From the NCBI GenBank assembly GCA_021827985.1, contig JAKATL010000007.1, positions 13,764 to 77,763 of the forward strand: 64,000 bases of DNA, in the 5' to 3' direction. Source of the DNA: a bacterium. GTDB lineage: Bacteria; Chloroflexota; Dormibacteria; Aeolococcales; Bog-877. The position numbers and the translations under genes are program-made. The notes beneath the pieces were generated by a model. That model worked only from the letters and a program-made list of their open reading frames with translations. It was not told where the DNA came from and ran no database searches. This document shows, in pieces, positions 2,717 through 64,000 of this stretch. Numbering within the stretch: position 1 is the stretch's first letter; every line of letters begins with the position of its first letter.

Positions 2717-3532
2717 TCACCCGGGTGTGGCCGACTCGGCGAGGGGGGCGGCGGCGAGCTGCAGCTGCAATTCGGCCGGCCGGAAGCCGAGCTCCTGGTA
2801 TAGGCATACGGCCGGCCCACTCGGATCCGCCACGATCACCAGGCGTCGCGCCGCAAGGTGGGTGGCGGCGTGGCGGGACGCTGCCACCAGGACGGCGCTG
2901 GCGAGTCCCTGGCGGCGGTGATTCGGATGGGTCTGCACGTGCTGGAAGCGGGCGGTGCCGCCCGTTCCGCCTACGATCCCGCATCCGGAGACCAGCTCTC
3001 CCTTCCGGAAGGCACCGAAGAAGGCGGCGCGACCGGTGGCTTCCAACCGCCGAAAGTCCGCCTGCCGGGCGGCCTGGAACTCGGGACCGCCCTCGCCAGA
3101 CCAGCAGGCCGCCGTGAGGCGCCGCTGTCTGTCCCAGTCGTCCTCGCCGGCCAGCCGCCGCACGACGGTGGCGGCCGGAGGGCGCCGGGGGGAGGAGAGC
3201 CTCTCGGCCAGCAGGGCCCGGTCCACGGTCAGCTCCAACCCGGCTCGGATCATGGGCTGAAGGCGGCCCGCCCCGCGGTCCGAGCCACGGTCCCATCCAA
3301 TCGCCACATGCAAGGCTCCCGGGAAGGCCTCGCGGAAGGTCTGGAGCCACCGGGAAGCGTCCTCCACCGGCGCCGTGCCGGAAAGGAGGATGAAGTTGCC
3401 CCAGTAGAAATATGGGTTGTGGGGCGCGCGCACCACCAGGTGGTCCTCGCCGTCCTCCACCTTGGCTCCGGCCAGGCGCAGGACCATGAGGTCGGTGCGG
3501 AACGCCAGTGTCCGGGCTTGCACCGGCGCCAC
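2717..3532 (-). CDS. GNAT family N-acetyltransferase
   Basis: The acetyl-CoA-binding motif RRQGLASAVLVAASRHAATHLAARRLVIVADPSGPAVCLYQELGF (Q/RxxGxG/A) lies in the C-terminal half. Confidence 0.7.
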   Translation of the reverse strand: MAPVQARTLAFRTDLMVLRLAGAKVEDGEDHLVVRAPHNPYFYWGNFILLSGTAPVEDASRWLQTFREAFPGALHVAIGWDRGSDRGAGRLQPMIRAGLELTVDRALLAERLSSPRRPPAATVVRRLAGEDDWDRQRRLTAACWSGEGGPEFQAARQADFRRLEATGRAAFFGAFRKGELVSGCGIVGGTGGTARFQHVQTHPNHRRQGLASAVLVAASRHAATHLAARRLVIVADPSGPAVCLYQELGFRPAELQLQLAAAPLAESATPG

Positions 3533-48473: not shown

Positions 48474-50300
48474 ATGGTCGCCCCCGTGGCCCCGGACATC
48501 CGTGACTTCCTGGCCGCCCCGGTGTGGCGGGCTCTGGACGTGGACGACGAGGGGCGGGTGCTGGCGGGCTGTGACGCCCCCGGGACCATCCAGCTGGTCG
48601 AGCTGGCCTTCGATGGCACCCCGACCTGGCTAACCGACCTCCCGGGCGGCTGCTCCGGGCGGTACCTGCCCGGTGAGCGCCTCGTGGTGGTCGAGCACGA
48701 CCAGGACGGGGACGAGCGCTGGCAGCTGTCGCTGCTGGACCTGGAGGAGCCCCCGACTGAGCCGGTGGGGCCGGCGGGGCTTCAGCCACTGGTTCGCGAT
48801 CCCCGCTTCCTGCACCAGCTCGTCCAGGTGCTTCCCGGCCAGGTGGTCTACCGCACCAACCGGCGCAACGGCGTCGACTTCGATGTGGTGATCCGCGACC
48901 TCAGGTCGGGTGCCGAGCGGGAGGTGTACGCCGCGGGCGGCATGGTCGAGGGGGTGGCCCTTGCACCATCCGGGGAGGCGGCGGTTCTGACGCGGGCCGC
49001 CACGTGCCCCATGTCCGAGCAGCTTCTCCTAGTGAACCCGATCGGAGCCCCACCCCGCCAGCTCACCGGCTCAGACCTTCCCGCCCAGCACCTGTTCCCG
49101 GGCTTCGCCGGCCCCTCCAGCCTGGTCCTCACCACCGACCGCGAGCGTGAGCACACCGCAGTCGTCGAACTGGACCTCAAGAGCGGGAGCTGGAAAGAGC
49201 TCATCTCCCGTCCGGGATTGGACGTGAGCGGCCACCTCGCGCCCTCTTCCACCCGCCTCCTTCTGCGGGTCAACCGGGGGGGGCGGGCGGAGCTGGAGCT
49301 TCACGAACTGGATGTCGCGCGGGCGCCGATCCCGGTCGCCCTGCCCGGAGCCGGATGGATCGGGGAGCCCACGCTGCCATCTCCCGCCTGGGCGCCATCC
49401 GGGAGGTGGGCCGCCGTCTCCTTCAGCAGCCCCACAGTCCCCGGGGACGCACTGAGGGTCGACGCCCTGACCGGGGAGGTGGCCACCGTCGCCAGCAGCC
49501 AGGGGGACCTAGGCGCCCACAGCTTCAGCTTGCCCACCCTGCATGAGGTTCCCTCCCCAGCCGGGCGGCCGATCCCCTGCTGGGTCTACGCGCCCACCGC
49601 ACCCGGTGGCCCGCTCGCCGGCTCGGCCGTCGTCGTGGTCCATGGTGGTCCCGAGTCCCAGTCGGTGGCCAGCTTCAACCCGGTGATCCAGGGCCTGGCG
49701 GCGGCAGGGCACACGGTCATCGTCCCCAACGTCCGGGGATCCACCGGGTACGGACGGGGCTGGTACTCGGCGGATGACGGCCGCCGGCGCCTCAACCCCG
49801 TCGCCGATCTGGAGAGCATCCACGCCTGGCTGCCGCAGGTGGGGGCCGACCCCTCCCGGGCAGCCCTCTGGGGCGGCTCCTACGGCGGCTACATGGTCCT
49901 CGCCGGCCTGGCCTTCCAGCCCCAGCTCTGGGCTGCGGGGGTGGACATCGTGGGGATCTCCTCCCTGGTCAGCTTCCTGCGCAACACCTCAGGCTACCGC
50001 CGAGCGGCTCGGGAGCGCGAGTACGGCTCGCTGGAGGCCGACCTGGACTTCCTTGAGCTTGCCTCGCCGCTTTCGCGGGTCGACAACATCCGCGCCCCCC
50101 TCTTCATGATCCACGGGGCCAACGACCCTCGGGTACCCCTCAGCGAGGCCGAGCAGCTGGCCAGGCGTCTTCGGCAACGGCAGGTGGAGTGCCACCTTCT
50201 GGTCTACGGGGACGAGGGCCACGGCCTCGCCCGCCGGCGCAATCGGCTGGACGCCTATCCTCGGGCGCTCCAGTTTCTCGCGAGGCATCTGTCCGGCTGA
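48474..50300 (+). CDS. S9-family serine peptidase (prolyl oligopeptidase/dipeptidyl peptidase-like) with N-terminal beta-propeller
   Basis: The catalytic nucleophile motif is LWGGSYGGYMVLAGL (GxSxGG). The downstream Asp/His region is IHGANDPRVPLSEAEQL...GDEGHGL. TolB-like propeller repeats lie upstream. The start is at MVAPVAPD. Confidence 0.85.
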   Translation: MVAPVAPDIRDFLAAPVWRALDVDDEGRVLAGCDAPGTIQLVELAFDGTPTWLTDLPGGCSGRYLPGERLVVVEHDQDGDERWQLSLLDLEEPPTEPVGPAGLQPLVRDPRFLHQLVQVLPGQVVYRTNRRNGVDFDVVIRDLRSGAEREVYAAGGMVEGVALAPSGEAAVLTRAATCPMSEQLLLVNPIGAPPRQLTGSDLPAQHLFPGFAGPSSLVLTTDREREHTAVVELDLKSGSWKELISRPGLDVSGHLAPSSTRLLLRVNRGGRAELELHELDVARAPIPVALPGAGWIGEPTLPSPAWAPSGRWAAVSFSSPTVPGDALRVDALTGEVATVASSQGDLGAHSFSLPTLHEVPSPAGRPIPCWVYAPTAPGGPLAGSAVVVVHGGPESQSVASFNPVIQGLAAAGHTVIVPNVRGSTGYGRGWYSADDGRRRLNPVADLESIHAWLPQVGADPSRAALWGGSYGGYMVLAGLAFQPQLWAAGVDIVGISSLVSFLRNTSGYRRAAREREYGSLEADLDFLELASPLSRVDNIRAPLFMIHGANDPRVPLSEAEQLARRLRQRQVECHLLVYGDEGHGLARRRNRLDAYPRALQFLARHLSG

Positions 50301-50357
50301 GAGCTGGGGCGCCGCTCCCACCTATATTCGAGTATTCGAGCAGTTTGGGCGCGCCGG

Positions 50358-50738
50358 GTGCGGGGCGCGCCGCCCCTCAATCCAGGTGCCCACTTGTCCC
50401 AGGTCCAAGGCCATCCGCGTCGCTGGCTGATCCTCGCCGTGGTCACCGTGGTGGCCTTCATCGGCAACGTCCACGGCACCATCGTGGTGGTCGGGCTGCC
50501 CCGGATCGTCCAGGGGCTGCACACCACCATCACCACCGGCCTCTGGACCCTGACCGGCTACATCATCACCAGTACCGTCTTCCTGCTGCCGGCGGGGCGG
50601 TGATCGGACGTCGTGGGCCGGAAGCGGATCTTCCTGGTCGGTGTGGGGCTGTTCGGCCTGGGCACGGTCCTCTGCGGGTTCGCTCCGTCCGGGGGAGCCC
50701 TGGTGGGTTGGCGCCTGCTGCAGGGGGTAGGGAACTAG
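50358..50738 (+). pseudogene. 5' fragment (~125 aa) of a DHA2-type MFS efflux transporter, frameshifted near 50603 and truncated at the junction with the serine-recombinase element
   Basis: Frame 1 reads RRWLILAVVTVVAFIGNVHGTIVVVGLPRIVQGLHTTITTGLWTLTGYIITSTVFLLPAGR then stops. The family-typical continuation SDVVGRKRIFLVGVGLFGLGTVLCGFAPSGGALVGWRLLQGVG is in the +1 frame (50603-50735). Homology ends abruptly at 50738, where the sequence turns AT-rich. Confidence 0.6.
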
Positions 50739-52582
50739 TCCCCGAGAACATCCCGCAAGAGCCCGTACGTATGTGTTAGTCTGCAGTTGTGAACCTGACT
50801 GAGTGGGCCCGCCGCCAAGGGATCCACCCCCACACCGCGTACCGATGGTTTGAGAGCGGCACCCTGCCGGTGCCGGCGGAGCGGGTGGGGCCGCGCACCA
50901 TCCTGGTGAACGTCGGCGCGGCCAGCGCGCTCCCGGCAGCCGGCCTGGGCCTCTATGCGCGAGTCTCGACCCGTGGGACGCAATCGAGCGGACCCCTGGC
51001 TAGATCCTCGGCCGTGCCCGCCGTCTTCAATTGCTGATTGGGGCAGAGCCAGGACCACCTGGACCTTGCCCCCACCTGCGTCGATGATAACGCGGCGGAC
51101 AAGCAGGCGTACAACTTGGCGCCGTCCGTCGAAGTCAAGTTGGCCGATCCCCTCAGAGACCCGCGCCGTGAAGGCCTCCAGGGATTGCAGCACGGCCGTC
51201 CAGTAGTCGCGGCCGCTGCGCCGGTCCGCCTGTGCCGCAAGGTCAGCTTCCAGACGCCCTAGGTGGTCCTTGAGCTCGGCGAGGCGCTGGCGCAGGTCTG
51301 TCTGGTCGAGCTCACCGTACTGGTAGAGGTCGACCAGCCGCTTCTGCTGGCTCCGCAGCCTGGCCCGGCGCCGCTCCGCCTCCCGTCGTTGCGCAGAATC
51401 CGTGCTGTCGGCCCCCAAGGTATCGATGCGGCGCTGGTACTCCCGCATGAGCGTCCCGGGGTCCTCACGAGCCTCCCGGACTGCGTCCCAGACCGCCTCC
51501 TCAAGACCCTCGGCTCTGACCGCTGGCGTCGGGTAGCGGCAGGCGCGACGATCACCGACGTTGAGCGGGTCAGCGGCACTGCACCGGTAAAGACGTCGCC
51601 CGTGGCTGACTGCCCCGGACATGGCAGCACCGCAGCTGGGGCAACGAACCAGACCGCCCGACAACAGGTAGCTGTGCCGCTTGTTGTTCCTCGGCGAGAA
51701 GCGGAAGTTCTCGGCAAGCTGCTGCCGGGCCCGTTTGAAGGTGGCCTCGTCGATGATCACAGGAACCCTGATAGCGACCCAGTTCTCCGTCGGCTGCACC
51801 TGGCGGACGGTCTTCGGCCGGTTCGATGGAGATGACCCGCCGGCTGATTCTGCCTTCACATAGGCGTTCCGCGCGTACAAGAACCGGCCTGCGTACCCTT
51901 CCTGCCGGAGCATGCGCCCGACCGTCGAGGCTCGCCAGTGGTCACCTCCCGCCGGTGCTGGCAGACCTCGCTCAGTGAGTACTCGGGCGATCTGCCGACA
52001 GGACTGGCGGTCCTCGACCAGCAAGCGGAACATCTCCCGCACCACATCGGCCCGGTCATCATCGATGGTCAGAGTCGCCCGCCTTGATCCGGACCGCGCG
52101 ACGTACCTGAAGCCGTAGGGAACGAAGCCCCCCATCAGGGCTCCCTCCCGCGCCCGAAAGAGCTTGCCTCGGCGCATACGATCTCGGATCACCTTGCCCT
52201 CGAAGTCGGCGAAGTCTCCCAGGATGTTCTCGATGAGCTCCCCTTGCGGGCTCGCGTCCGAAGGGTGCTGCACGAACTCCAAACGTGCTCGGCGCCTGAG
52301 CTCCTTAAGGAGGAGGGCCTGATTGCAGCGGTCCCGCGACAGCCGACCTATCTCGTGGATAACGATCACGTCGACGTCGCCCCGGGCGACTGCGTCGCGT
52401 AGGCGGTCGAGCGCGGGGCGGGCGAGATCGTACCCTGATCGGGCCTCGTCGACGAACTCGGTTGGAGTGTCGTAGCCTTTGCGCTGAGCATAGGTGCGCA
52501 GGGCGTCCAGCTGGCTCTCGACGGTCTCCTCGCGCTCCTGCCTCTCAGAGCTAACTCGGGCGTATAGGGCGACTCGTGTCAT
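50735..52582 (-). mobile_element. large serine recombinase (site-specific integrase/resolvase family) of an integrated element
   Basis: The N-terminal resolvase catalytic domain is MTRVALYARVSSERQ...SQLDALRTYA...DVIVIHEIGRLSRD. A recombinase domain, a zinc ribbon (CPSCGAAMSGAVSHGRRLYRC) and a coiled-coil (LRSQQKRLVDLYQYGELDQTDLRQRLAELKDHLGRLEADL) follow. An AGGGGGGA RBS precedes the ATG. The last ~130 codons are low-complexity and may be read-through. The gene's 3' end abuts the truncated MFS gene. Confidence 0.85.
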
Positions 52583-52915
52583 CGGTGATCCCCCCTGATG
52601 TGGCGGCGGAGTGTAGCGGCTTCTGTTGTGTAGTGGGGGGATACTTCGCGACTTCACCGGCCTGTCGCGGTGGGCGGGCGTGCAAAGCGCCCGGCGGGGC
52701 CTTCTCAGCCTGCAGCGCCAGCTCAACCGCCTGCCGCAGCCGATCATGCGTGTCGGGCACCGGCTCCCAGACGACGACCGTCTGGAGGGGACCGCAGGCA
52801 GTTCGGGGATGCCGTTCTGAACTCACCTCTCAACGATCGGGTGTGGGCACCGCCTCCGCGTGGCGGGGTCGGGCTGCCGGGTCCGCAACGCGCTCCTTGG
52901 AGGCATGACCAGCGG

Positions 52916-53830
52916 ATGCCCAGAAAGCTGAGCGGCGAGGACCTGCATGGCCTTCTGGCGGCTGTCTACGGGCCGCCGCCCTGGGACCTCACGGCTGAGG
53001 GAGTGGCCGCGAAGCTCAGCGCCCTCCGCCAACCCCTGGTCAGCGGCGAGGGTCTGTCGGCGGACATCAAAGAACGGGAGAGGAAGCGGCGGGCGCTGGC
53101 CAAGCCCCCGGCCGTCCGCCGGCCAGCTGAGGACGAGCTAGCCCACGAATGGCTGTCTATACATCGAGAGGCGGCAGCGCAGAAAGCCTTTCGGACGCGC
53201 CTCATCTACCTCGCGCGGTCAGCCGTTCCGGTAGCCGAGGCAAGTGCCGCAGTCGACTTGGCCAGTGCGCCTGGACCCGGGTGGCTGCGGACAGCGCCAG
53301 CCCCGGACGCACCCAGGGGCGGAAGCGCCCCTATCGACCGAGCGGTCGCCCGGCTGATCGAGCGGCACAGACTCCCGCCGACCCGGGCGGCCGCTCGGCG
53401 GCTCAGCCGGCACCTGCTGACCGGCAACCCCGACTGGCTCATAGGCTGGGACCTGAGCATGGCGCTGGTTCGAACCCCCGGCGAGTCTGTGGAGCCCGGG
53501 TACGACTCCCTGACGGTGACGGTGGTCGGGCTCGACGCCTTCGTCACGCGTGAAGACTGGGCGGAGATCTGGGAGCGGGTCGTCGAGCCTCGCCAGACCC
53601 TGTGGCTGGCGGTGCGAGGCCAACCTTCCCCGCGGGGTCCACGAGGAGTGCAGATTGCAGCGCTCGAGGCGACTATGCCACTGTACCGTGCGATTGTCCT
53701 GGATGGCTTGTCGCTACCCCAGGCACGGCAAGCGCTGCAGGAGAAGAGGGGGCGATCCACAGGGATCTCCCCCTCAACCGACTACCGAGGGGTCCGCGCG
53801 CTCCGGCGGCTACTCGAACCCGGCCCGTAG
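52916..53830 (+). CDS. hypothetical protein (304 aa), divergent from the serine recombinase
   Basis: Protein-like composition with no motif I can assign. The start is the internal ATG MPRKLSG; the upstream part of the ORF is Ala/Pro-rich non-protein-like sequence. Possibly an element-encoded regulator or recombination directionality factor. Confidence 0.45.
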   Translation: MPRKLSGEDLHGLLAAVYGPPPWDLTAEGVAAKLSALRQPLVSGEGLSADIKERERKRRALAKPPAVRRPAEDELAHEWLSIHREAAAQKAFRTRLIYLARSAVPVAEASAAVDLASAPGPGWLRTAPAPDAPRGGSAPIDRAVARLIERHRLPPTRAAARRLSRHLLTGNPDWLIGWDLSMALVRTPGESVEPGYDSLTVTVVGLDAFVTREDWAEIWERVVEPRQTLWLAVRGQPSPRGPRGVQIAALEATMPLYRAIVLDGLSLPQARQALQEKRGRSTGISPSTDYRGVRALRRLLEPGP

Positions 53831-53876
53831 TCCCAGCCCTTCGCCCCGGTGATCATGCACCTATCCTGACAGGACC

Positions 53877-54953
53877 ATGGAAGACGATACCGGGGGACGC
53901 CGTCGCAGTTGGTGGGCCATCGTTGGCCCTCTGCCGTCCTCTGAACCTACGGGCTGGCTCACGACACCCCACGACCGTACCCGCGTGCTCGATCGGGAGT
54001 ACGAGGTCGGCCCACTGCGTCTTCGTCCCGGTGGGAAGCGCTTGGTCGAGTACTTGCGCCTGGACCCGCTGGCACTGGAGGGCATAAGGAGGTCCGAGTC
54101 GTGGCCCCTTCTCGTGGAGAGCTCCTGGGAAGATGGTCTGCCCAGGATCTTTGCGAGCGGCCCGGAGGAAGTTCGAGCGGCCAAGCCAACCTGGCCAGCC
54201 ATCGAGCGGCAAGGCAGTGAGGACTTGCACCGGCTCTGCGCGCTCCTTTCCTTGGCGTGGGGTGAGCCCTGGCAGGTCCGAACCTCACCCAAGCCTTCGG
54301 AGCACCTCGACGCCGAGGTGCCGGACTCATGGCCAGCTCCACCCAGATGGCACCAGGACGACGACTTCCCACCCTCGCACCAGGAGGGGCTGCCGGACTG
54401 GATCAGCACGGCCTGGGATCAGGTGGGGACGGACGACCACGTTGCTGCCGCTCTTACCGCCTGGCACCAGGGCCTGCTCCTGACTCCGCAGCACCCCTCG
54501 TTCGCGCACGTGGCCCTCGTAGGCGCGATCGAGGAGTTGAGTCACGCCTCACCATTCGCAGCTATCGTTGACAATGGTCTGCCGGTTCCGTGCCATACCT
54601 GCGACGCGCGACACGATGCCTCCCAGCGCTTCTGGCGGATGGTGAGGCAGGTAGCGGCCGGCGCGGAGGTTGCCGAGCTAAAGGAACTCAACCCTCTGGG
54701 GAAGCGTGGCGCGGCCGCGCATGGAGCGCGGCTCCCTGGCATCGAAACGACGTACGGCTCCGTGGTGCTCCTGGACTGGATACCCCCGAGCCCGGAGGGA
54801 GACCCTCCGAGATTCGAGTTCAATCCGGACGACCCAGCCCAGATCTTCGTCCTCAAAGTGGTGCCCGCCGTGCGTGGGATTGCCCGCCGCCTCCTTCTCA
54901 AGGCCCTCGGCGCACCTGCCAACTCGTTTACCCCGGGCCTCGGAGCGGCCTGA
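53877..54953 (+). CDS. hypothetical protein (358 aa)
   Basis: Protein-like ORF with an AGGACC RBS. It is preceded by the palindrome TCCTGACAGGA, the same motif found upstream of the RHH gene at 58043. No assignable domain. Confidence 0.5.
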   Translation: MEDDTGGRRRSWWAIVGPLPSSEPTGWLTTPHDRTRVLDREYEVGPLRLRPGGKRLVEYLRLDPLALEGIRRSESWPLLVESSWEDGLPRIFASGPEEVRAAKPTWPAIERQGSEDLHRLCALLSLAWGEPWQVRTSPKPSEHLDAEVPDSWPAPPRWHQDDDFPPSHQEGLPDWISTAWDQVGTDDHVAAALTAWHQGLLLTPQHPSFAHVALVGAIEELSHASPFAAIVDNGLPVPCHTCDARHDASQRFWRMVRQVAAGAEVAELKELNPLGKRGAAAHGARLPGIETTYGSVVLLDWIPPSPEGDPPRFEFNPDDPAQIFVLKVVPAVRGIARRLLLKALGAPANSFTPGLGAA

Positions 54954-54994
54954 AGAGGTCATCGTGGGACCGACCGGGTAGTCCACCCAGTCCA

Positions 54995-55130
54995 GCATTC
55001 GTCCACGAGTCCTCCCATTCGTCCAGCCACGAGTCCACGCCGTCCCTGTGCCGTTGCGGGACGACGTTAGGGACGACATCTGAGATCATCCGCAGGACGA
55101 CATACGTGACGACGCCTCCGACGACATGAC
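54995..55130. repeat. intergenic cluster of short direct repeats: 2x CATTCGTCCA..CGAGTCC and at least 5x GACGAC(AT)
   Basis: Seen directly: CATTCGTCCACGAGTCC / CATTCGTCCAGCCACGAGTCCACG, then GGGACGACgttagGGACGACATctgagatcatccgcagGACGACATacgtGACGACgcctccGACGACATgacg. It lies immediately upstream of the 55155 gene. Confidence 0.55.
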
Positions 55131-55154
55131 GTACTGTGGCGGTGCAAGATCATC

Positions 55155-56285
55155 ATGTCGCTTACCGAAACTATCGAAGCCGAACTGCTGCACACCCTGG
55201 AGGGGGGTGGGGAGCCCGGGGAGGTGATCGCTCGGTATTCGGGCTCCAAGGGTCCCCTGTACTCCGCGCTGGCTCGGGCGACCGCAAGGGGTTCGGTGGA
55301 GCTTGCCCGCATCCGGCAGCAGCTTGCCGAGGTCCGAGGCCATCTTGCCCAGGCACAGCGGGACGCCGCCACAGCGGAGTCGAGGGGCCACAAGGCTCAG
55401 GTCGTTGCGGCTGCCGCAGAGGCCCGAACCTCGGAGCTGGCCGAGGCAGTCGCCCACGCCGAACGGGTTCTGCGGCAGGCCGAGGCTCTCCGAGCGCAGG
55501 GTTGCGGTGACGAGACCCTGGCGGCCATCGGAAGGCTTATAGCCGCAGTTGCCGATGGGGACGGGATTCCGCCTGCAGAGGCCGTTACCCGCCTGCTGGA
55601 GGCCGGTGAACACCACGGCCGTCTGGTCGACTTCGAGGCTCAAGCCCTGGCTGTGGAGCGCCGCCTCCAGCGCGCTCAGTCCGAGCTAGCGCGGTTGACG
55701 CCTACGGTCGCAGCCTTGAGGGACGAGCGAGAGGTCATCAAAGCGGGGTTGGCCGCAATCGCCGCCGACGGGACCAGCCAGCTGGCCAGGGCGCAGCAAG
55801 TGGCGGTCACCGCGCTGCAGGAGGCCCAGCGAGCGGCGCAGGGCGCTCTGCAGCAGGCTGGGATGCGGGCTCAGTCCCAAGCCCAGGCGGCCGAGCAGGC
55901 AGCAGAGCGGAGCCTGGCTGGCTACCGACGCCTCACCCGGGAGGCCGCCCTCCTTGAACAGGACGTCACCTTCGCCCGGCTCCTCCGGGATCCGGACGCC
56001 CGCTACTGGCAGGTGGTCGCCCCGTCAAGTTGGCAAGTCGTTATTGCTCGACTGGCCGCCTGGGCCGGTGCCGTGGTCCCCGACCTCCCGGTGCCGATTC
56101 CCGAGCCCGTCAAGGGGGTCGTGGCCGGGAGCGTCAGCTACCCGGCGGTCTACGGACCGCTCCGGGTCCCGCTTCTTGGGCTCATCGCCTGGCTGAGCGA
56201 GGGGATCAAATTGGTGCCCAGTGCGGCCCTCCGGGCGCACCTCGACCGGGTGGCCGACAGCAACTCGCGGGTGGAGTCCGAATAA
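55155..56285 (+). CDS. hypothetical coiled-coil protein (376 aa) with hydrophobic C-terminal region
   Basis: Long Ala/Gln/Arg/Glu-rich heptad-like stretches (about residues 40-290) are followed by a hydrophobic C-terminus (AVVPDLPVPIPEPVKGVVAGSVSYPAVYGPLRVPLLGLIAWL). No catalytic motif. Confidence 0.5.
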   Translation: MSLTETIEAELLHTLEGGGEPGEVIARYSGSKGPLYSALARATARGSVELARIRQQLAEVRGHLAQAQRDAATAESRGHKAQVVAAAAEARTSELAEAVAHAERVLRQAEALRAQGCGDETLAAIGRLIAAVADGDGIPPAEAVTRLLEAGEHHGRLVDFEAQALAVERRLQRAQSELARLTPTVAALRDEREVIKAGLAAIAADGTSQLARAQQVAVTALQEAQRAAQGALQQAGMRAQSQAQAAEQAAERSLAGYRRLTREAALLEQDVTFARLLRDPDARYWQVVAPSSWQVVIARLAAWAGAVVPDLPVPIPEPVKGVVAGSVSYPAVYGPLRVPLLGLIAWLSEGIKLVPSAALRAHLDRVADSNSRVESE

Positions 56286-56360
56286 CTGGCTGAGCGCGAG
56301 CTACCTCGGGAGGTGGAGATGGCTGATGGCGGCCCAGCGCGGGCCGCCATCAGCCCACCA

Positions 56361-57851
56361 TCAACTCACAGGGACAGTGTGCGGTCCCCGCGCGGCCAGG
56401 GCCGGAACCAGGTTCGCGGCGATAGGAGTTCCCAGGCCGGTCACCGGATCCCACCCGGGGCTGGCGCTGTACCCCGGAATCGCGGGATCGGTCTGATTGT
56501 TGCCGATCGTGACGTCGTTGAAGTAGGTGCTGTAGCTGCCGCCAGCGGCGAGTGCATAGAGCGAGTCGTTGATGAGCCCCAAGTTGGTGCCGGCCTTCTG
56601 GTCTGCAAGCGAGACCATCGCCGCGAACTGGGGCGATGCTGCCGAGGTGCCGCAGATCCCGTAATACCCCGGTGTGAAGCCTTGGGCCGAGATGTACACC
56701 CATACGAAGGTTCCGCATGAGGCCTGCCAGGCTACATCTGGAACGCCGCGCATGGTGCCGCTGAAGTTGGATCCAGTGGGCAGGTTGTCCTGATATGGCG
56801 GGCGGGCGAAGATCTGGCTGAAGCCGCCCCCGGATCCCCGCCAGGCCACGTCGTGCTGAGCCGGAGAGACGTTGCAAGCGGAAGGGCCACCGGTAGGCTC
56901 AAGGCTCGACCCCGTGACGGGGTTGGTGCAGAGGTTGGTCCCGCCGACCGCCGTGACCAGCGGATCCGACGCCGGCCATTGGACAGTTGGATAGGGGATG
57001 GTGCTGCCGCCCTGGCCAACCGGAGTCTTGGTGGAGTTGGCGGTACCGCTGTCACCAGCGGCTGCCATGAAGGTGATACCCGCTTCGGTCCCCGTGATGA
57101 AGGCGTGGCGAAGGCTGAGGAGCGACTGTGCGCTCCCGAAGGAGCCCTCAGCGGCAGCGAAGCTCTGGGTCACAACGTTGGCCATGTGGTGGTCCACCAC
57201 GTACTGCTCCGCGTTCATCATGTTGGGGAAGCCCTGCACGCCAAGGGTCTCAGCGGTGGGGACGACCACGAGGAGGATGTTGGCCTCCGGGGCGATCGAG
57301 TGGGCCCACTGGGTGTCCAGCGCCACCTCGCCGACCCACCCGCTGCTCTGCTCCTGGCCGGGGCCGTAGGGATTGCTCTGGGAGCTGCTGGTGGGTGGCT
57401 TGACTTGGCGGTTGCCGAACATCAGCACATGGAAGGTGGGCATGCCCGGCTTGCAGGTGACACCTGGCATTCCACACATGAGAGGGAGCCCGTAGGCTTG
57501 AGAGAAGGTCTCCAGGTCAGAAGCGACTGCCGGGTAACCGAACGAGTCAACGATGGCTATGGTCTCCCCCTGGCCCATCAGTCCAGAGTTGTAGAGAGGG
57601 GTCAGGTCGTACGAGACCTGCATCGAACTGGGGTCGAAAGCCCGCGCTCCGAAGTAGAAGCCTCCCGGAGGAGCCTGGGTGCCTGCCTCAAAGGCTCCTT
57701 GGAACTGGGCGCTAAGTGGCGTCGCCGCCGGATAGGAGATCGGCCTCGCCGCTGCTCCGACCGCGACTCCCGAGGAAGCAGCCACCGCGCCGAACGCCAG
57801 CGCTGCTATCCACGCGCGCCAGCTCCGCAACCGCACGCCAGAGGATTTCAT
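56361..57851 (-). CDS. secreted S53-family (sedolisin/kumamolisin-like) serine peptidase
   Basis: A GGGAGGA RBS is followed by a signal peptide (MKSSGVRLRSWRAWIAALAFGAVAASSGVAVGAAA), a pro-domain-like region, the catalytic domain (VDHHMANVVTQSF, AAGDSGT) and the nucleophile motif GYYGICGTSAASPQFAAMVSL (SGTSAAxP type). Confidence 0.75.
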   Translation of the reverse strand: MKSSGVRLRSWRAWIAALAFGAVAASSGVAVGAAARPISYPAATPLSAQFQGAFEAGTQAPPGGFYFGARAFDPSSMQVSYDLTPLYNSGLMGQGETIAIVDSFGYPAVASDLETFSQAYGLPLMCGMPGVTCKPGMPTFHVLMFGNRQVKPPTSSSQSNPYGPGQEQSSGWVGEVALDTQWAHSIAPEANILLVVVPTAETLGVQGFPNMMNAEQYVVDHHMANVVTQSFAAAEGSFGSAQSLLSLRHAFITGTEAGITFMAAAGDSGTANSTKTPVGQGGSTIPYPTVQWPASDPLVTAVGGTNLCTNPVTGSSLEPTGGPSACNVSPAQHDVAWRGSGGGFSQIFARPPYQDNLPTGSNFSGTMRGVPDVAWQASCGTFVWVYISAQGFTPGYYGICGTSAASPQFAAMVSLADQKAGTNLGLINDSLYALAAGGSYSTYFNDVTIGNNQTDPAIPGYSASPGWDPVTGLGTPIAANLVPALAARGPHTVPVS

Positions 57852-58086
57852 GCCACGTCCTCCCTTGCTACTCACCTAGCCAGCGAACGCATCGCCGCCT
57901 CCGACGACATCCTACTCCTCAGTTCCCGCGCCGTCGGCCGGGCACAAGTCCAACTCTGCCGGATCTCCCCTGTAGTTAGGCTCGCCTGTGATCAGGTCCA
58001 GGGTGGCAGAACCTACACCTCTTGACGATGGCGTCCAATCGTCCTATCCTACAGGACGCTAGTCCTACACTACAGAGGAGGTCGTC

Positions 58087-58476
58087 ATGGGCGTGATCAA
58101 GAAGACCGTGGTCCTCGATGACCGCATCGAGAGGTTCGTACGCCGGACTCAGGCGCTGATGCTGGAGGCCGAGCCCCCCATCGAAGCGACGTACTCCTCT
58201 GCCCTGAACTTCATGCTCCTGGCGGCCATCCATGAGGCCTCCCGTCCGGGCGGCCTGTCAGCCGAGACCCGGGAAGTCATCTGGGACTTCGCGCGCGACA
58301 ACGACACCCTGGAGGAGCTGAACCTGCACGAGCGGATGGGAGCGGTCCGTGCCGCCCTACTGCTCGGCGAAGGCGTTGAACACCCCCACGCCAGGCAGCC
58401 TCCAGCCAATCCATCTCCTGAGGCGCCGGATGGCGAGTCCGACACGTCGGCTCCCCACCCGACGGCGGCCGAATGA
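58087..58476 (+). CDS. ribbon-helix-helix (CopG/Arc/MetJ-like) domain protein with acidic/Pro-rich tail
   Basis: The N-terminal beta-strand-helix-helix pattern is KKTVVLDDRIERFVRRTQALMLEAEPPIEATYSSALNFMLLAAI. A GAGGAGG RBS precedes it, and upstream lies the palindrome GTCCTATCCTACAGGAC. Confidence 0.55.
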   Translation: MGVIKKTVVLDDRIERFVRRTQALMLEAEPPIEATYSSALNFMLLAAIHEASRPGGLSAETREVIWDFARDNDTLEELNLHERMGAVRAALLLGEGVEHPHARQPPANPSPEAPDGESDTSAPHPTAAE

Positions 58477-58636
58477 ACCCGGCTGGCATCCTGCAGGGGG
58501 TCGCTCCTCTCTGCAGCCACCTCGGCTGGGGGGCAGGGGCACCGGGGCGGCCCTGTGCCCGGGCCGACGAGGCGCTGCCGGGAGCGGCTTCCGTGTGCAT
58601 GCAGGCCGGGCTCGATGGGCTGCAGATGGCGCGGCC

Positions 58637-59272
58637 ATGCTAGCCGCTGTTCGGCGAGCCTGCGGGTGCATGGTCCTCTTCTTGGCCGTGGGCGCGGCGT
58701 TGGGCGTGGCTATCGCCGCCTACCCGTACGTCGCCCCCCAGGTCCCCCGGGCCGCCTCAGCCGTTTCTCATGGGGTGAGCGAACTTCGCTCCCTGGTGTA
58801 TGGGCTCCAGCGGGTAGGGCCGCCAGCCCACCTTCCGGCGACCCCCGCACCGCTACCATCAACGGCGGCGACACCGGCCAAACCGACGTGGACCCGGCCC
58901 AGCTCGGATAGCTGCCAGTGGGGGATCTCCCTTCTGGCCCAGGACCACGCCCTCGACGTGAGGGCAGCCCGAGAGTACCCCGCCTGGCAGACCTGGTACG
59001 ACACTACTGCCGGTTGGTGGGCAGGGGCCGAAGTGGATCTGGAGGGTCTGTGCGGTCAGGCGGCTGCGCCCAGCCGTGCCAGCTGCCAGGCCGACCTGTC
59101 CCACTTCAGCGAGGCGGAGCAGAACCACGAGGCCGCGGCGGCTGGCACGGAACCGAGTTCGATGCCCGGTACGACGACCCAGGATCGGACATGGAACTTG
59201 GAGTGGGCCGCAGACTACCGGCGGCTCTTCGGCATCTTCGCCATCACCGGCTGCGGTGGCGTGGGCGGATGA
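58637..59272 (+). CDS. hypothetical membrane-anchored/secreted protein
   Basis: An N-terminal TM/signal anchor (CMVLFLAVGAALGVAIAAYPYVA) is followed by a Cys-containing extracellular region. No assignable domain. Confidence 0.4.
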   Translation: MLAAVRRACGCMVLFLAVGAALGVAIAAYPYVAPQVPRAASAVSHGVSELRSLVYGLQRVGPPAHLPATPAPLPSTAATPAKPTWTRPSSDSCQWGISLLAQDHALDVRAAREYPAWQTWYDTTAGWWAGAEVDLEGLCGQAAAPSRASCQADLSHFSEAEQNHEAAAAGTEPSSMPGTTTQDRTWNLEWAADYRRLFGIFAITGCGGVGG

Positions 59273-59624
59273 CGACGCGAGGGGCCTCCAAGCGGGGCAG
59301 GCCTTGGCACGGGGCCGCCCCAATGGGGAGGGAGGCCCCGTAGGCAACGTGCTGCCGCCCTGCCGAGCCACGGATCGAGGTTTGGATCGCCGGCTGCTGG
59401 CGCCTGTTGTCCGTGCTGCCGGCGACCCACTGCGGCATCCCGTGAGTCGCCGCCACCTGGGAGAGCCGCAAAGAGAGACGGCCAGGCGCCGGACGCGATC
59501 AGCTGCCGGGAGGACCCGGCTCCCCGGTGGCTCCCCAGCGCCCCCCCTGCTCTGCGACCAGCTCGACAGTCGCCCAAGGGTTGGGCCTTCCGATCAGAGG
59601 GGAGATGGGCGGGTGCAGGAGAGA

Positions 59625-59682
59625 GGTGTCCTGATCCGGTGTCCTGATGAACCGCTGACGCTCCCCTGACCGGTGTCCTGAC
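59625..59682. repeat. three direct copies of GGTGTCCTGA(T/C) (iteron-like) upstream of the 59715 gene
   Basis: GGTGTCCTGAT occurs at 59625 and 59638, and GGTGTCCTGAC at 59672. Additional CTGAC repeats lie between, and a CTACTGTAG palindrome sits at 59696. Confidence 0.5.
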
Positions 59683-59714
59683 GCCGACCTTAGAAGCTAC
59701 TGTAGGAAGGAGCG

Positions 59715-60086
59715 ATGGCCCGATCTGTCCGCTTGCTGAAGGACGGCCAAGCCCCGCACCGGGAGCCTCAGTCGCGGGCGCGCCATCGTGCAGAGCACGT
59801 GACGGTCGGGGTGATGGTGACCATCGAGGAGCGGGACGCTCTCGCGGCCCGAGCCGCCGCTGCCGGCATCTCGATGGGCGCCCTGCTTCGAGGGGATCCG
59901 GCTGCCCGGGACGCCGAGCTGCAGATCCTCCGGGAGCGAAGTCGTCGCGCAGGGCTGGCCGAGGGGCGGCGGGAGCGTGAGGCCGACGTGGCGGCGCTGC
60001 GAGAGAAGCTTGCCTCGATTGCATCCACGGGCGACGCTCGGGCCAACTCCGTGGCTGCAGCGTGGAGAGCCTTGCAGTGGAGATAG
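59715..60086 (+). CDS. MobC/RHH-like small DNA-binding protein (hypothetical)
   Basis: VTVGVMVTIEERDALAARAAAAGISMGALLRG resembles the MobC/ribbon-helix-helix pattern (strand, then helix ending in a basic residue). An Arg/Glu-rich helical tail follows. No relaxase lies downstream. Confidence 0.4.
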   Translation: MARSVRLLKDGQAPHREPQSRARHRAEHVTVGVMVTIEERDALAARAAAAGISMGALLRGDPAARDAELQILRERSRRAGLAEGRREREADVAALREKLASIASTGDARANSVAAAWRALQWR

Positions 60087-60344
60087 AAGCGCTCAGCGAA
60101 CTCAGAGCTGTGGTCGAGGCACGGGTACCTCTCGCGGTCTACCGAACCGATCCGGCCCAGCTACCCGGAGAACTTCGACGCGCGCCTCCAAGACCGGCTC
60201 AACCGGATCCCGCCACCGCTAGGTGGTTGGCCACCCGCCTGAGGGCGCAAGCCCTGGCCAGCTTGGCGACCTGCCGCCCCATCACAAGGGGTCCCCTGTG
60301 ATCACTCCACCACTTCGAGCGGCGATGCGTTGATCGCACGAGCT

Positions 60345-60974
60345 TCAAGTCCGGTGCAAGGCTTCCCAGCCCAATAGGCCACCAAAGCCCACCAGCCCTA
60401 TACCGGAAGCTACGTCGACCGCCCTGGCTGTCCGGGGTCCGATGCGCCGCCGAGTGAGGCTTCCCACGGCTGAGAGCAGGGAGAACCAGCCTAGGCTGCC
60501 GAGTCCGACACCCACCACCAACCCCGCCGCGTCGAGGGGCGTCCGGGCAGGGGCAGCAGCGGAGGCCGCCGTGAACAGCGCGGCCCAAGACAGAATCGTG
60601 AGCGGGTTCGATGCGGTTGCGATCAGGGCAGTGCGAACCGCCCGACCCAGATGCCTCACCTCCTCCTCTGTCTCCAAGCCCTGTCTCACTCGCGCGGCGG
60701 ACCACACCGTGCGAACGCCCAGGGCAATCAAGAAGGCGGCCCCAGCTACACCGAGGGAGACCTGAAGCCCGGGCAGGGCGCGGAGTGCGGAGGCCGCGCC
60801 GACGGCGCCGAGAGCCGCATACGTCATGTCGATCGTGGCCGCCCCAACCCCGATCGCCAGTCCGGCCACGAACCCGCTCCGAAGTGCGCTTCGGGCGCAC
60901 AGGAGCCAGATCGGACCCACCTGAGCGGCAACCAGGGCTCCGAACCCAAGGCCGCCCAGGAAGGCTGCCGCCAT
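60345..60974 (-). CDS. LysE/RhtB-family amino-acid exporter
   Basis: MAAAFLGGLGFGALVAAQVGPIWLL is the typical LysE N-terminus. The topology is six TM segments. Confidence 0.8.
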   Translation of the reverse strand: MAAAFLGGLGFGALVAAQVGPIWLLCARSALRSGFVAGLAIGVGAATIDMTYAALGAVGAASALRALPGLQVSLGVAGAAFLIALGVRTVWSAARVRQGLETEEEVRHLGRAVRTALIATASNPLTILSWAALFTAASAAAPARTPLDAAGLVVGVGLGSLGWFSLLSAVGSLTRRRIGPRTARAVDVASGIGLVGFGGLLGWEALHRT

Positions 60975-60976
60975 CG

Positions 60977-61162
60977 CTACCCCAGTGCCTCGATCGTCAG
61001 CGCGAGCCGCTTCGGAGAACCGAGCCTAGCATGGGCCGCCTTCTGCAGGTAGAGGGTCCCGACGACGGGGCTACCGGGGTGGTCCGGTGGCTGGCCCGTC
61101 TCGTCCTCGGCGAACCGGATGGTGTTCTTGGTCTCCCGCTCCAGGGTGAGGTGGATTTCCAT
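60977..61162 (-). CDS. small hypothetical protein (61 aa) in operon with LysE-family exporter
   Basis: MEIHLTLERETKNTIRFAEDETGQPPDHPGSPVVGTLYLQKAAHARLGSPKRLALTIEALG has protein-like composition. Its stop overlaps the LysE start. The longer listed ORF upstream is non-protein-like. Confidence 0.4.
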   Translation of the reverse strand: MEIHLTLERETKNTIRFAEDETGQPPDHPGSPVVGTLYLQKAAHARLGSPKRLALTIEALG

Positions 61163-61554
61163 GATGCCTCCCGAACTCGGCCAGGCAGGGTGGGGGCCCG
61201 TTTGCCCTCTCCGAAATGGGGGTCTGGCCGGACCCCGGTTCCGCTGTGTACAGTAGCCGCCATGACCATCTCCGGAAGGGCTCCCTTTCCAGTGCCCCCG
61301 GGCCATCATTGGGGCGACGGAGCCCAGACCAATAGCGCCAGCCTCCGGCAGCGCGGCAGAGCGCTGATGACCGGGTTCCCTGGGGCCGGCGTGGTGCGGG
61401 TGTGCTGGGTGGCTGTTGGCCGCAGATAGCCGGCCGATGGCAATCCGGCAGCGGCCCAGGGCACCGGCTGCGGAGGCCTTGAGGAGCACGGGAGCGGAGC
61501 CTTTGGCTCCCACTGGATCATCGCGACTTGAGAGCCGCATTTGCCGCCCGCCCG

Positions 61555-64000
61555 ATGCGTGAGGACGGATCCGGCCCGACGAGTCTTGCCGATGGCAGCT
61601 TCGATGAACTTGTCCAGCTGGCAGCAGGACATTCGCCATATCCGTACCAGCGGCGGCTCGCCAAGGGAGGGCTGCCCGAACTCTTGCAGATCCCCACTGG
61701 TGCAGGCAAGACCCTCGCCGCCACGCTTCCCTGGTTGTACCGTCGACGATTCCATCCCGACCCTGAGGTCCGGGCCGGGACACCCCACTGGCTGATCTTC
61801 GTGCTCCCCATGCGGGTGCTGGTGGAGCAAACGCGGGACATGATCGGCCGGTGGCTGCAGAACGCGGGGCTTGCGGACGAAGTCGGCCTTCACGTGGTGA
61901 TGGGCGGAGAGGGACGACTGGAGAGTGCGTGGCGCCGGGCCCCGGAGCAGGACGCGATCTTCGTGGGGACCCTGGACATGCTGCTTTCCCGGGCGTTGAA
62001 TCGGGGCTACGCCGCGAGCCGGTTCGCCTGGCCGATTGACTTCGGGCTGTTCAACTCCGGGTGCCAATGGGTATTCGACGAGGTCCAGCTCATGGGCCCT
62101 GCACTGCCGACATCGCGCCAACTTGAGGGGCTTCGGCGCGCGCTTGGCACCGCCGTCGCCTGCCGCTCCATGTGGATGTCGGCCACCGTCAACAAACGCC
62201 GGTTATCCACCGTCGATCTTCCAGAGGTCGGAACTGGTCTCGAACTCGGATCGGCAGACTGGGCTGGTCCTTTGGCTAGGCGCCTCAACGCCCCGAAGGC
62301 TGTACGGCAGCTCGCTCTCGACAGCGGTGCGGCGGGCTACGGCCGCAGTCTGGCGACAGCGCTGCGTGAGCACCACCGACCCGGGACGCTGACCATCGCC
62401 ATCGTCAACACCGTGGAGCGAGCGCAAGCCGTCTGGCGCGAGCTTACCAAGGGGCCAGGCGTGGACGATGTCGAGGTTGTCCTCCTCCACTCACGCTTCC
62501 GAGCGCCAGATCGAGCGACCCAAGCTGCGGCTGCTCTGCGGCCAATCGATCCGTCGGGCCCTGGACGTCTGGTGATCTCCACGCAGGTACTCGAAGCCGG
62601 GGTCGACATCTCGGCCACCACTTTGTTCACCGAAGCCGCGTCCTGGCCATCGATTGTGCAGCGCGCCGGGCGGTGCAACCGCGACGGAGACAGCCCCGGG
62701 GCCGTCCTTCTGTGGGCTCAACCTCCGTCTTTCCAGCCCTATGAGGCGGACGATGTCGACCACGCCGCAGCCGAACTCATCTCACTGGAAGGGACCGCCG
62801 TTACCGCCGGCGACCTCGTCCAACGGACAGTGGAGGTTGTCGAGCCGGTCCATCCGGTTCTCCGGCTCCCAGACCTGGTTGGGCTGTTCGACACGACGCC
62901 CGACCTGACAGGTAACGATCTCGATGTGGGTCGCTACATCCGTGAGGGGGGCGACCTGGACGTGCAGATAGCGTGGCGGGCCGGGCTCCAGGTCAACGCC
63001 CCGCCCGCTGAAGCCCGTCCCACACGCGATGAGCTGTGCCCGGTCCCCATAGGCCAGGTCCGGTCGTGGCTTAAGGTGCCACGGGGGGCGGCGTCTCCGG
63101 TGTTGGCCTGGAGGTTCGACCAACTCGGCGCGGAGTGGGTGCGTTGCAAGGCTGAGGAGGTCCGCCCCGGCCATGTGCTGTTGGTGCCCGCGGAGGTCGG
63201 CGGCTATGATCCCTTCTCGGGCTGGGACCCCAAGTCGACCGCTCCGACCACCGTTCTGCCTGAAGTGGAAGCGTCGCCCATCGCCCAGGCGGAGGAGGCG
63301 ACCGCCGACGATCCGTGCACTTTCGCCCCCGGTGTGTGGGTCAGCCTGAGGGATCATCTGGAGCAAGCGGAACGCGCGCTCCGCGTAATAGCGGCGGCGT
63401 ACCCACTACCGCCCCACCTGGTCGAGGCTGCGGCCAACGCAGCCCGGTTCCATGACCTCGGCAAGGCACATCCCAGCTTTCAGGGGTTCCTCTTGAGTTC
63501 CATCCGCTCACCGGCGGAATCACCGCCAGCCGGCGGTCCCTGGGCGAAGTCGGCAGGTCGGGGCCGAGGCAACCATCAGCGCCGATTCTTCCGACATGAG
63601 TTGGCATCGGCCCTCGCGCTGCTGGCCAACCCGGAATCCCTTGAGGCGGTGCCCGATCCCGACTTGGTGGTGTACCTGGTTGCCGCCCACCACGGGCGAG
63701 TTCGCATTGCCATCCGCTCCCAACCTGGCGAGATGCCACCTGCTGGTGACCCTGATCGGCGCGTGGCCATGGGGATCTGGGACGGCGAGCCACTGCCCGC
63801 CGCCGAAGTTCCTGGGACGACATTCCCGTCCGTGTCGCTCAGCCTCGGCTCTATGGAACTTGGGGACGGTCCGGATGGAGCACCGTCTTGGACATCTCGG
63901 ATGATGGCACTCCGGGATCGGTCGGATATCGGCCCCTTCCGGCTGGGATTCCTGGAGGCTCTGGTGCGCCTTGCCGACTGGAGAGTCAGCGCCGATGACC
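61555..64000 (+). CDS. cas3: Cas3-like superfamily-2 helicase with C-terminal HD nuclease domain (helicase then HD order, type I-G/I-U-like); partial, continues past the window end
   Basis: Helicase motifs: I LQIPTGAGKTLAA, II FDEVQLMG, III SATV, V/VI ISTQVLEAGVDISATTLF...SIVQRAGRCNRDG. The C-terminal HD domain shows DHLEQAER, FHDLGKAHPSFQ, FFRHELASALALL, VAAHHGRV and LVRLADWRVS (the H, HDxGK..FQ, RHE, HHG, AD series typical of Cas3 HD). The frame is open from ATG 61555 to nt 64000, which is why it is not in the supplied ORF track. Confidence 0.75.
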   Translation, partial: MREDGSGPTSLADGSFDELVQLAAGHSPYPYQRRLAKGGLPELLQIPTGAGKTLAATLPWLYRRRFHPDPEVRAGTPHWLIFVLPMRVLVEQTRDMIGRWLQNAGLADEVGLHVVMGGEGRLESAWRRAPEQDAIFVGTLDMLLSRALNRGYAASRFAWPIDFGLFNSGCQWVFDEVQLMGPALPTSRQLEGLRRALGTAVACRSMWMSATVNKRRLSTVDLPEVGTGLELGSADWAGPLARRLNAPKAVRQLALDSGAAGYGRSLATALREHHRPGTLTIAIVNTVERAQAVWRELTKGPGVDDVEVVLLHSRFRAPDRATQAAAALRPIDPSGPGRLVISTQVLEAGVDISATTLFTEAASWPSIVQRAGRCNRDGDSPGAVLLWAQPPSFQPYEADDVDHAAAELISLEGTAVTAGDLVQRTVEVVEPVHPVLRLPDLVGLFDTTPDLTGNDLDVGRYIREGGDLDVQIAWRAGLQVNAPPAEARPTRDELCPVPIGQVRSWLKVPRGAASPVLAWRFDQLGAEWVRCKAEEVRPGHVLLVPAEVGGYDPFSGWDPKSTAPTTVLPEVEASPIAQAEEATADDPCTFAPGVWVSLRDHLEQAERALRVIAAAYPLPPHLVEAAANAARFHDLGKAHPSFQGFLLSSIRSPAESPPAGGPWAKSAGRGRGNHQRRFFRHELASALALLANPESLEAVPDPDLVVYLVAAHHGRVRIAIRSQPGEMPPAGDPDRRVAMGIWDGEPLPAAEVPGTTFPSVSLSLGSMELGDGPDGAPSWTSRMMALRDRSDIGPFRLGFLEALVRLADWRVSADD

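Follow-up and report, generated by a model that had tools for sequence, protein, structure and literature searches.

A predicted palindromic operator over the -10 box of a ribbon-helix-helix-like gene, and a promoter-like partial copy of it, in a serine recombinase island of a Dormibacteria genome

Two copies of a short motif at two gene starts

The 64,000-nucleotide (nt) stretch analyzed here (positions 13,764 to 77,763 of contig JAKATL010000007.1, assembly GCA_021827985.1, Chloroflexota, Dormibacteria; hereafter the window) has a G+C content of ~70% and carries an island whose genes follow in the order large serine recombinase, 386-amino-acid (aa) protein, 358-aa protein, 376-aa protein, peptidase, 129-aa protein, 211-aa protein, NikA-like open reading frame (ORF), and LysE transporter. 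A short motif is found twice in this island, directly before the 358-aa gene (site 1) and upstream of the 129-aa gene (site 2), which encodes a small protein with a ribbon-helix-helix (RHH)-like domain. A first-pass annotation proposed that the two copies form a shared operator, through which the small protein would control both its own gene and the 358-aa cargo gene. The present comparisons favor, with moderate confidence, a division of roles in which site 2 would belong to the autoregulatory operator of the 129-aa protein and site 1 would be the -10 element of a weak promoter, not a second conserved operator. The features at the two sites are as follows.

53860-53876, plus strand: site 1, CCTATCCTGACAGGACC, directly before the ATG (53877) of the 358-aa ORF
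53877-54953, plus strand: 358-aa gene, lacking a usable Shine-Dalgarno sequence and matching nothing in Pfam, PADLOC, or NCBIfam
58043-58057, plus strand: site 2 motif, CCTATCCTACAGGAC, ending 29 nt 5' of the ATG (58087) of the 129-aa ORF
58061-58075, plus strand: downstream partial repeat AGTCCTACACTACAG, in the 5' untranslated region of the 129-aa gene, 21 nt from the first unit
58087-58476, plus strand: 129-aa gene, for a candidate repressor that has an RHH-like domain at its N terminus (residues ~5-52), a helical C-terminal domain (59-95), and a disordered tail

Both motif copies are present on the plus strand where the annotation had placed them, and a search for further copies that covered the window returned these two matches only. 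At site 1, the motif can be written as CCTATCCTGACAGGAC(C) (53860-53876), and the 29 nt between site 2 and the small gene agree with the distance of about 30 nt reported before. The partial third copy after site 2 was also recovered; TCCTAYMCTACAG occurs at 58042 and again at 58063, an offset of 21 nt. This repeat is kept in the related loci L027, L017, and L030 and partly in L020 and is absent from L022, L003, L002, and L021, so that it does not appear to be a family-wide feature. The flanks of sites 1 and 2 are unrelated, with no homology beyond 8 + 7 nt. The inverted repeat TCCT(G/A).CAGGA, which had been described as part of the motif, is present at both sites, as TCCTG-A-CAGGA at site 1 (53864-53874) and as GTCCT-N7-AGGAC at site 2 (58041-58057), but at site 2 it is merely the inner part of a larger dyad of 9 + 5 + 9 nt. 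Pairs of the inner half-sites alone, CCTA-N5/6-YAGG, give 4 matches in the window versus 3.1 expected, none of them meaningful.

The promoter and palindrome of the 129-aa gene

A consensus scan of positions 50000-62000 of the window returned a sole sigma-70-type match, TTGACG-17-TATCCT, which lies upstream of the 129-aa gene and includes site 2.

58022-58027, plus strand: -35 box TTGACG of the 129-aa gene promoter (consensus scan)
58031-58036, plus strand: extra direct half-site-like GCGTCC in the promoter spacer (read from the sequence)
58038-58060, plus strand: 23-bp palindromic operator (predicted), ATCGTCCTA-tccta-CAGGACGCT, centered at 58049 and straddling the -10 box
58045-58050, plus strand: -10 box TATCCT, the left half of the motif at site 2 (consensus scan and alignment of 10 promoters)
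58076-58081, plus strand: Shine-Dalgarno sequence AGGAGG of the 129-aa gene (read from the sequence)

Ten independent promoters of loci with 129-aa homologs, including that of the window, were aligned without gaps. TTGAC stands at an identical 17-nt spacing from a TATCCT-like hexamer in nine of them, and the -10 column reads TATCCT, TATCTT, TATCGT, or TAGCGT in all ten. The 9 + 5 + 9 dyad across the -10 hexamer is likewise found in 10/10 promoters, in the same columns, giving the consensus AGCGTC(C/T)TA-N5-TA(G/A)GACGCT over a TTGAC-17-TATCCT promoter. GCGTC(C/T), a putative half-site, occupies the same place in the spacer in L027, L020, L015, L002, and L030. The sequences of the arms differ among the loci, as in the following cases.

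L020: operator AGCGTCCTA-tcctc-TAGGACGCT, a perfect palindrome
L015: operator AGCATCTTA-tcctc-TGAGATGCT, both arms changed
L027: operator AGCGTCCTA-tccta-CTGGACGCT
L030: operator ATCGTCTTA-tccta-CCGGACGCT

The symmetry of the dyad is kept through these changes. Complementary bases fill 83% of the arm cells in register, versus 26 to 46% with the partner arm slid by 1 to 3 nt; the strict symmetry of the arms is 60/81, and both sides have changed in 4/9 arm pairs. In the window, L027, L030, and L017, cassettes with protein identities of 86% or more, operator positions 2, 7, and 15-17 vary, and the outer CGTC/GACGC is fixed. A weight matrix built from eight homologous sites, with the window excluded, gives its top score in the whole window, 28.5 bits, to 58038; the best unrelated match after it scores 8.1. 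A dyad-symmetric site overlaps the core promoter, with 23 bp covering the -10 box, and the dyad and its symmetry are kept with the 129-aa gene in ten promoters and at least six genomic contexts. On these comparisons, site 2 is predicted to be the core of a conserved, -10-overlapping palindromic operator. The left arm lies 5' of the -10 box and is untranscribed from this promoter; therefore, the dyad would act as DNA and not as an RNA hairpin.

The 129-aa gene is followed by a 211-aa gene (58637-59272, plus strand), the second gene of the cassette, encoding a membrane-anchored partner whose N terminus has a hydrophobic segment and for which Pfam, PADLOC, and NCBIfam gave no match. Homologs of the partner, 39 to 81% identical, lie directly downstream of the 129-aa gene in L015, L016, L017, L020, and L021 and also in L030, and the ~200-aa partner is absent in L022. 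The homology shared by the window and L030 starts 7 nt 5' of the -35 box, at 58015. The cassette extends over 58015-59512 in the window and 967-2452 in L030 and is also found in L017, L015, L021, and L022. Its neighbors include VapB (L015/L016), HicB (L021), Abi_C inside a defense island (L022-L024), HTH_17 with a small resolvase (L030/L031), the 376-aa gene (L027), and the peptidase in the window; the promoter, the dyad, and the 129-aa gene appear to travel as a unit. Because the neighbors vary and L022 lacks the partner, only the 129-aa gene always accompanies the dyad, and its product is therefore the best candidate for the binder. No second copy of the locus's own operator was found within the +/-10 kb of flanks fetched for eight other loci. 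The defense-type settings of the cassette contain Abi_C, type I restriction-modification, DUF4011 helicase, RelA_SpoT, and HEPN_Apea genes. A type II toxin-antitoxin pair was considered for the cassette and rejected, the partner being a ~200-aa membrane protein that has no toxin family match and is absent in L022.

The candidate repressor belongs to a family of 327 proteins at E values up to 0.01 (95 representatives at 50% identity) that has no Pfam model. The family reaches Chloroflexota and archaeal genomes and has no match in viral contigs, which gives no sign of a viral origin; the homologs of both the 129-aa and the 358-aa genes are mostly from metagenome-assembled genomes of "Candidatus Dormibacteria"/Dormibacterota. 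The first-pass annotation had called the protein an RHH protein. In an AlphaFold2 model, helices 12-26 and 36-52 are predicted with a predicted local distance difference test (pLDDT) score of >90 and are preceded by an extended 11-residue N-terminal segment, in which a beta-strand is not formed in the monomer model. This segment holds the invariant K6 and the near-invariant K5 and V8 of a 121-sequence alignment, in which T7 was not flagged. The predicted structure is similar to solved RHH domains. In sequence, however, Pfam gave no match for the protein, for 25 family members (E values up to 10), or for 10 distant representatives; a sequence-profile search of the PDB and a Foldseek search against the PDB returned nothing; hhalign against CopG gave a probability of 0.9%, no match; and membership of the curated RHH families (Pfam RHH_1, CopG, Arc, MetJ, ParG, and others) was not found. 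The RHH assignment is thus moderately supported, by the predicted structure and not by sequence. Members of the family also occur in archaea (Bathyarchaeota, Hecatellales) and Dehalococcoidia, and there, L005 (~330-400), L006 (~3240-3310), and L007 (~440-470) share a different upstream element with repeats of GTATGCTAGTA / AGTATG, which suggests that the family keeps operator-like repeats with another specificity in these members. In one distant homolog, L008, the 7-nt arms stand one base further apart.

A mechanism can be proposed for the cassette. TTGACG-17-TATCCT would be a strong sigma-70-type promoter that drives the two genes, for the 129-aa RHH-like protein and the 211-aa membrane protein. 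A dimer of dimers of the 129-aa protein, or a higher oligomer assembled via the helical C-terminal domain, would most likely bind the dyad, and its presence there would block RNA polymerase at the -10 box, so that the protein would repress transcription of its own gene. The autoregulation put forward by the annotation is accordingly likely as far as the dyad over the protein's own -10 box is concerned; that the 129-aa protein is the binder is most likely from genomic context, and occlusion of the -10 box is the most likely way in which it would repress.

Site 1 and the 358-aa gene

As a bare repeat, the motif is unremarkable, with 1-2 low-GC repeats of the type "8 + 7 nt with one indel" in the real window versus ~1.5 (up to 4) in dinucleotide shuffles. 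A second null model, in which a partial copy of the independently defined operator is sought, gives a different answer. A 15-nt partial copy of the 23-nt operator as good as site 1 arises in 2/1000 shuffles, and 247 kb of related loci contains no such nonhomologous copy; therefore, the resemblance needs more than chance, and the likeness of site 1 to site 2 is probably not purely accidental. It may stem from a promoter function common to both sites, from ancestry within an element that is very mosaic, or from weak secondary binding. The 8-mer CCTATCCT has three copies in the window (50254, 53860, and 58043) versus 0.72 expected, a number reached in 5/100 shuffles. It is decidedly unlikely that site 1 is functionless, as a chance likeness or as a relic of recombination between promoter cassettes. 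Such an origin would fit the mosaic element, the first null model, the shuffles with three copies of the 8-mer, and the 46-nt spacer before the 358-aa gene, which has no significant excess conservation, but it leaves the second null model unexplained, together with a conserved block in the spacer (described below) and the need of the 358-aa gene, which has no Shine-Dalgarno sequence, for some means of translation initiation.

Site 1 holds a -10-like TATCCT (53862-53867) and the 11-bp palindrome TCCTGACAGGA (53864-53874), and the 358-aa gene, whose start position is conserved among homologs, begins 46 nt after the preceding gene. The annotation had the site overlapping a ribosome-binding site, which is contradicted by the position of AGGA, just 2 nt from the ATG, and by its absence from the nearest diverged homolog. 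No structure signal was found by RNA folding at site 1 (z score, -0.25), where a TCCTG/CAGGA stem would leave a 1-nt loop. In L025, the homolog of the 358-aa gene has the leaderless-type layout TACCCT-6 nt-GTG. Because of this layout and the lack of a usable Shine-Dalgarno sequence before the ATG, site 1 is most readily interpreted as the -10 element of a weak internal promoter, from which a leaderless or 3-nt-leader mRNA would start near 53874-53877. Two features weigh against such a promoter, namely, that it has no good -35 box and that its -10 box is 9 nt from the ATG.

In the near-identical elements L027, L028, and L029, site 1 is identical. In L019, which encodes the nearest diverged 358-aa homolog (74% identity) behind the same upstream gene, CCTATCCTGACA is kept as the longest conserved block of the spacer and GGACC is replaced with CAACT, so that TATCCTGACA is retained but not GGAC. 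No motif is present upstream of six more distant homologs. The metagenome scan for 358-aa homologs uses the closer subset of the alignment, and the full alignment has no conserved block. Between the window and L027 (~94% nucleotide identity), CAG has become CTG at site 2, and site 1 still reads CAG. Conservation in homologous elements, by which the annotation proposed to judge the motif, is found for site 2, in the ten promoters, but site 1 is intact only in near-identical elements.

Against the family matrix, site 1 scores -8.1 bits without gaps and ranks 606th. With one extra central base allowed everywhere, it reaches 9.1 bits and the ninth rank, behind unrelated sites of up to 17.5 bits; its two arms contribute 0.8 and 2.0 bits, and TATCCT alone gives 12.4 bits. 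Its matches to the window operator fall on the -10 box and mainly on the variable inner positions; C3, T5, and G21, three of the four best-conserved outer dyad positions, are missing, and there is one extra central base. It shares with site 2 neither the specificity positions nor the spacing and shows neither conservation nor covariation with it. Of the shared operator at both gene starts, the part concerning site 2 stands, as a dyad conserved in ten promoters, but site 1 is without the conserved outer positions. On present sequence evidence, the most probable role of site 1 is that of a promoter element with a likeness to the operator and not of a second operator; any binding there would be secondary and weak at most. 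When a motif recurs at two gene starts, one copy can thus be a real operator and the other a promoter look-alike.

The opposite reading, in which both sites are operators of the 129-aa RHH-like protein, repressing itself and the 358-aa gene, with site 1 bound at lower affinity through the inner half-sites CCTA and CAGGAC, is unlikely but has some points in its favor. The 15-nt identity to the element's own operator is rare in shuffles, site 1 overlaps a -10-like hexamer right at a gene start, and the two genes lie within the same element in both the window and L027. RHH dimers ~11 bp apart would touch the inner GTCCTA/TAGGAC segments, which are largely kept at site 1, and the spacing may be tolerant, as the arms in L008 suggest. 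MqsA-type control of other promoters through operator-like palindromes is known, but cooperative binding by YefM, an antitoxin outside the RHH class that recognizes paired palindromes, is disrupted when the spacing is altered (PMC3920265). The missing outer positions and the additional base, arm scores at background, the ninth rank in the gapped scan, the loss of the right arm in L019, and the lack of covariation with site 2 in L027 all speak against a second operator. In addition, the 358-aa and 129-aa families are found together in no element but this one and its near-identical relatives and are unlinked elsewhere, and no other locus has a second operator copy. Control of the 358-aa cargo gene by the 129-aa protein, as first suggested, is thus disfavored by the background-level arms, the absent covariation, and the right arm lost in L019.

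A broader proposal, that the cassette is a self-contained mobile regulatory module that, once landed in an element, brings neighboring cargo under its control by means of degenerate operator copies with altered spacing, site 1 being an example, is improbable. If true, the 129-aa protein would be a master switch of the serine recombinase island, from an uncharacterized family spread over Dormibacterota, Chloroflexota, and archaea.

The island and comparison with known systems

The remaining features of the island are as follows.

50735-52582, minus strand: large serine recombinase gene
52670-53830, plus strand: 386-aa ORF, probably ~304 aa
55155-56285: 376-aa coiled-coil gene
56361-57875, minus strand: S8/S53-like peptidase gene
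56367-57969: 1.6-kb peptidase segment between the 376-aa gene and the cassette, absent from L027 (blastn)
59715-60086: NikA-like ORF, followed by the LysE transporter gene

Pfam, PADLOC, and NCBIfam searches with the 386-, 358-, 376-, 211-, and 129-aa proteins gave nothing meaningful, the matches of the 376-aa protein being coiled-coil noise. Window positions 50953-58305 can be compared with L027. The recombinases of the two elements share 60% of their amino acids, the 386-aa proteins 79%, the 358-aa proteins 96%, and the 376-aa proteins 84%; over the 73 residues present in L027, the 129-aa protein shows no difference. In L027, the 129-aa gene directly follows the 376-aa gene (5746/5747), and in the window, the left breakpoint of the peptidase segment comes right after a strong GC-rich hairpin (~56321-56373). 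The sister elements are thus strongly mosaic, which indicates that recombination between related elements is frequent. The recombinase gene and the 376-aa gene contain the two halves (51710-51728 and 55313-55331, 3.6 kb from each other) of a perfect inverted repeat of 19 nt, CTCGGCAAGCTGCTGCCGG and its complement, which is longer than expected for a 12-kb region. Homologs of two of the island genes have neighbors of a similar type elsewhere, that of the 358-aa gene standing beside SNF2 helicase, DUF1156 methylase, and DUF499 genes (L025, 522-9618) and that of the 129-aa gene beside type I restriction-modification, Abi_C, and HEPN_Apea genes (L022, 1-20306); the two families may both, separately, be residents of defense or variable islands. 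The ORF at 59715-60086 (123 aa) is a second RHH-like ORF, which matches a NikA-like mobilization protein at 26.0 bits versus a cutoff of 27 and has a weak TraJ match. It could encode a relaxosome accessory protein, and the island may be mobilizable, as the NikA-like match hints.

The third copy of CCTATCCT (50254-50261, plus strand), ~480 nt away from the recombinase gene, is in the last codons of an S9-peptidase gene (GCC TAT CCT, with rare codons that end in A or T). In the last 22 codons of this gene, the G+C content at third codon positions (GC3) is 0.73 versus 0.82 to 0.95 elsewhere, and because of this drop, the left junction of the island may lie near 50254. A further explanation of the motif starts from this copy, with the three direct copies of the 8-mer as recombination or junction sites of the serine recombinase, similar to the integration-site repeats of SCCmec-type elements, that mark the modules of a composite island. 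The copies are all on the plus strand, the first is in the end of a chromosomal gene beside the recombinase gene where GC3 falls, and the modules between the copies differ among sister elements. This explanation is nevertheless very improbable. The -10 box and the operator fully account for the copy at site 2, which is conserved without a large serine recombinase nearby (L015, L021, and L022); at 50254, there is no similarity beyond 8 nt, and no junction-type repeat is found elsewhere; the boundaries of the peptidase indel (56367/57969) match no copy; and three copies are only marginally above expectation. An attachment-site or junction-repeat role for the CCTATCCT copies was rejected on the recombinase-free contexts and the indel boundaries.

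With site 2 as the predicted operator of the 129-aa protein, the comparison provides a concrete operator for a widespread, unannotated protein family. To our knowledge, there is no experimental genetics for Dormibacterota, and the locus is for this reason one of the few places where comparative data give a direct view of promoter architecture in this phylum. The mechanism itself would be a textbook one, ordinary self-regulation by a small repressor that occludes its own -10 box; it is the protein family that is new to annotation.

The closest known setting is that of RelBE, in which 12-bp inverted repeats, one of them over the -10 box of the operon's own promoter, mediate negative autoregulation (PMC3920265). 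The 129-aa protein would share with RelB and other RHH antitoxins a small N-terminal RHH-type DNA-binding domain and negative autoregulation through inverted repeats over its own -10 box, and its cassette is often located among toxin-antitoxin and defense genes. Unlike in RelBE, the cassette partner is a ~200-aa membrane-anchored protein that matches no toxin family, and the 129-aa protein has no sequence relationship to the RelB, CcdA, ParD, or CopG families. MqsA regulators, which also act on unlinked promoters via operator-like palindromes (PMC3920265), are a precedent for a repressor at a second promoter with a similar palindrome. However, MqsA is not an RHH protein, and site 1 is without the conserved arm positions and is a candidate for binding only. 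In architecture, an RHH head joined to a helical C-terminal domain, the 129-aa protein resembles TraM of F-like plasmids (pED208 TraM-sbmA; PDB 3on0/3omy), with which it shares 10% sequence identity, and no conjugation context lies directly at the 129-aa gene. TraM, an accessory protein of the relaxosome, recognizes sbm sites close to the origin of transfer (oriT) and not a -10-overlapping operator. Compared with CopG of pMV158, Arc/Mnt of P22, and MetJ, the 129-aa protein is larger, having a helical domain and a disordered tail in addition, and its 23-bp operator has 9-nt arms whose conserved cores are ~16 bp apart, versus typically 8 to 11 bp for these regulators, a wide spacing that may be set by the C-terminal domain of the 129-aa protein.

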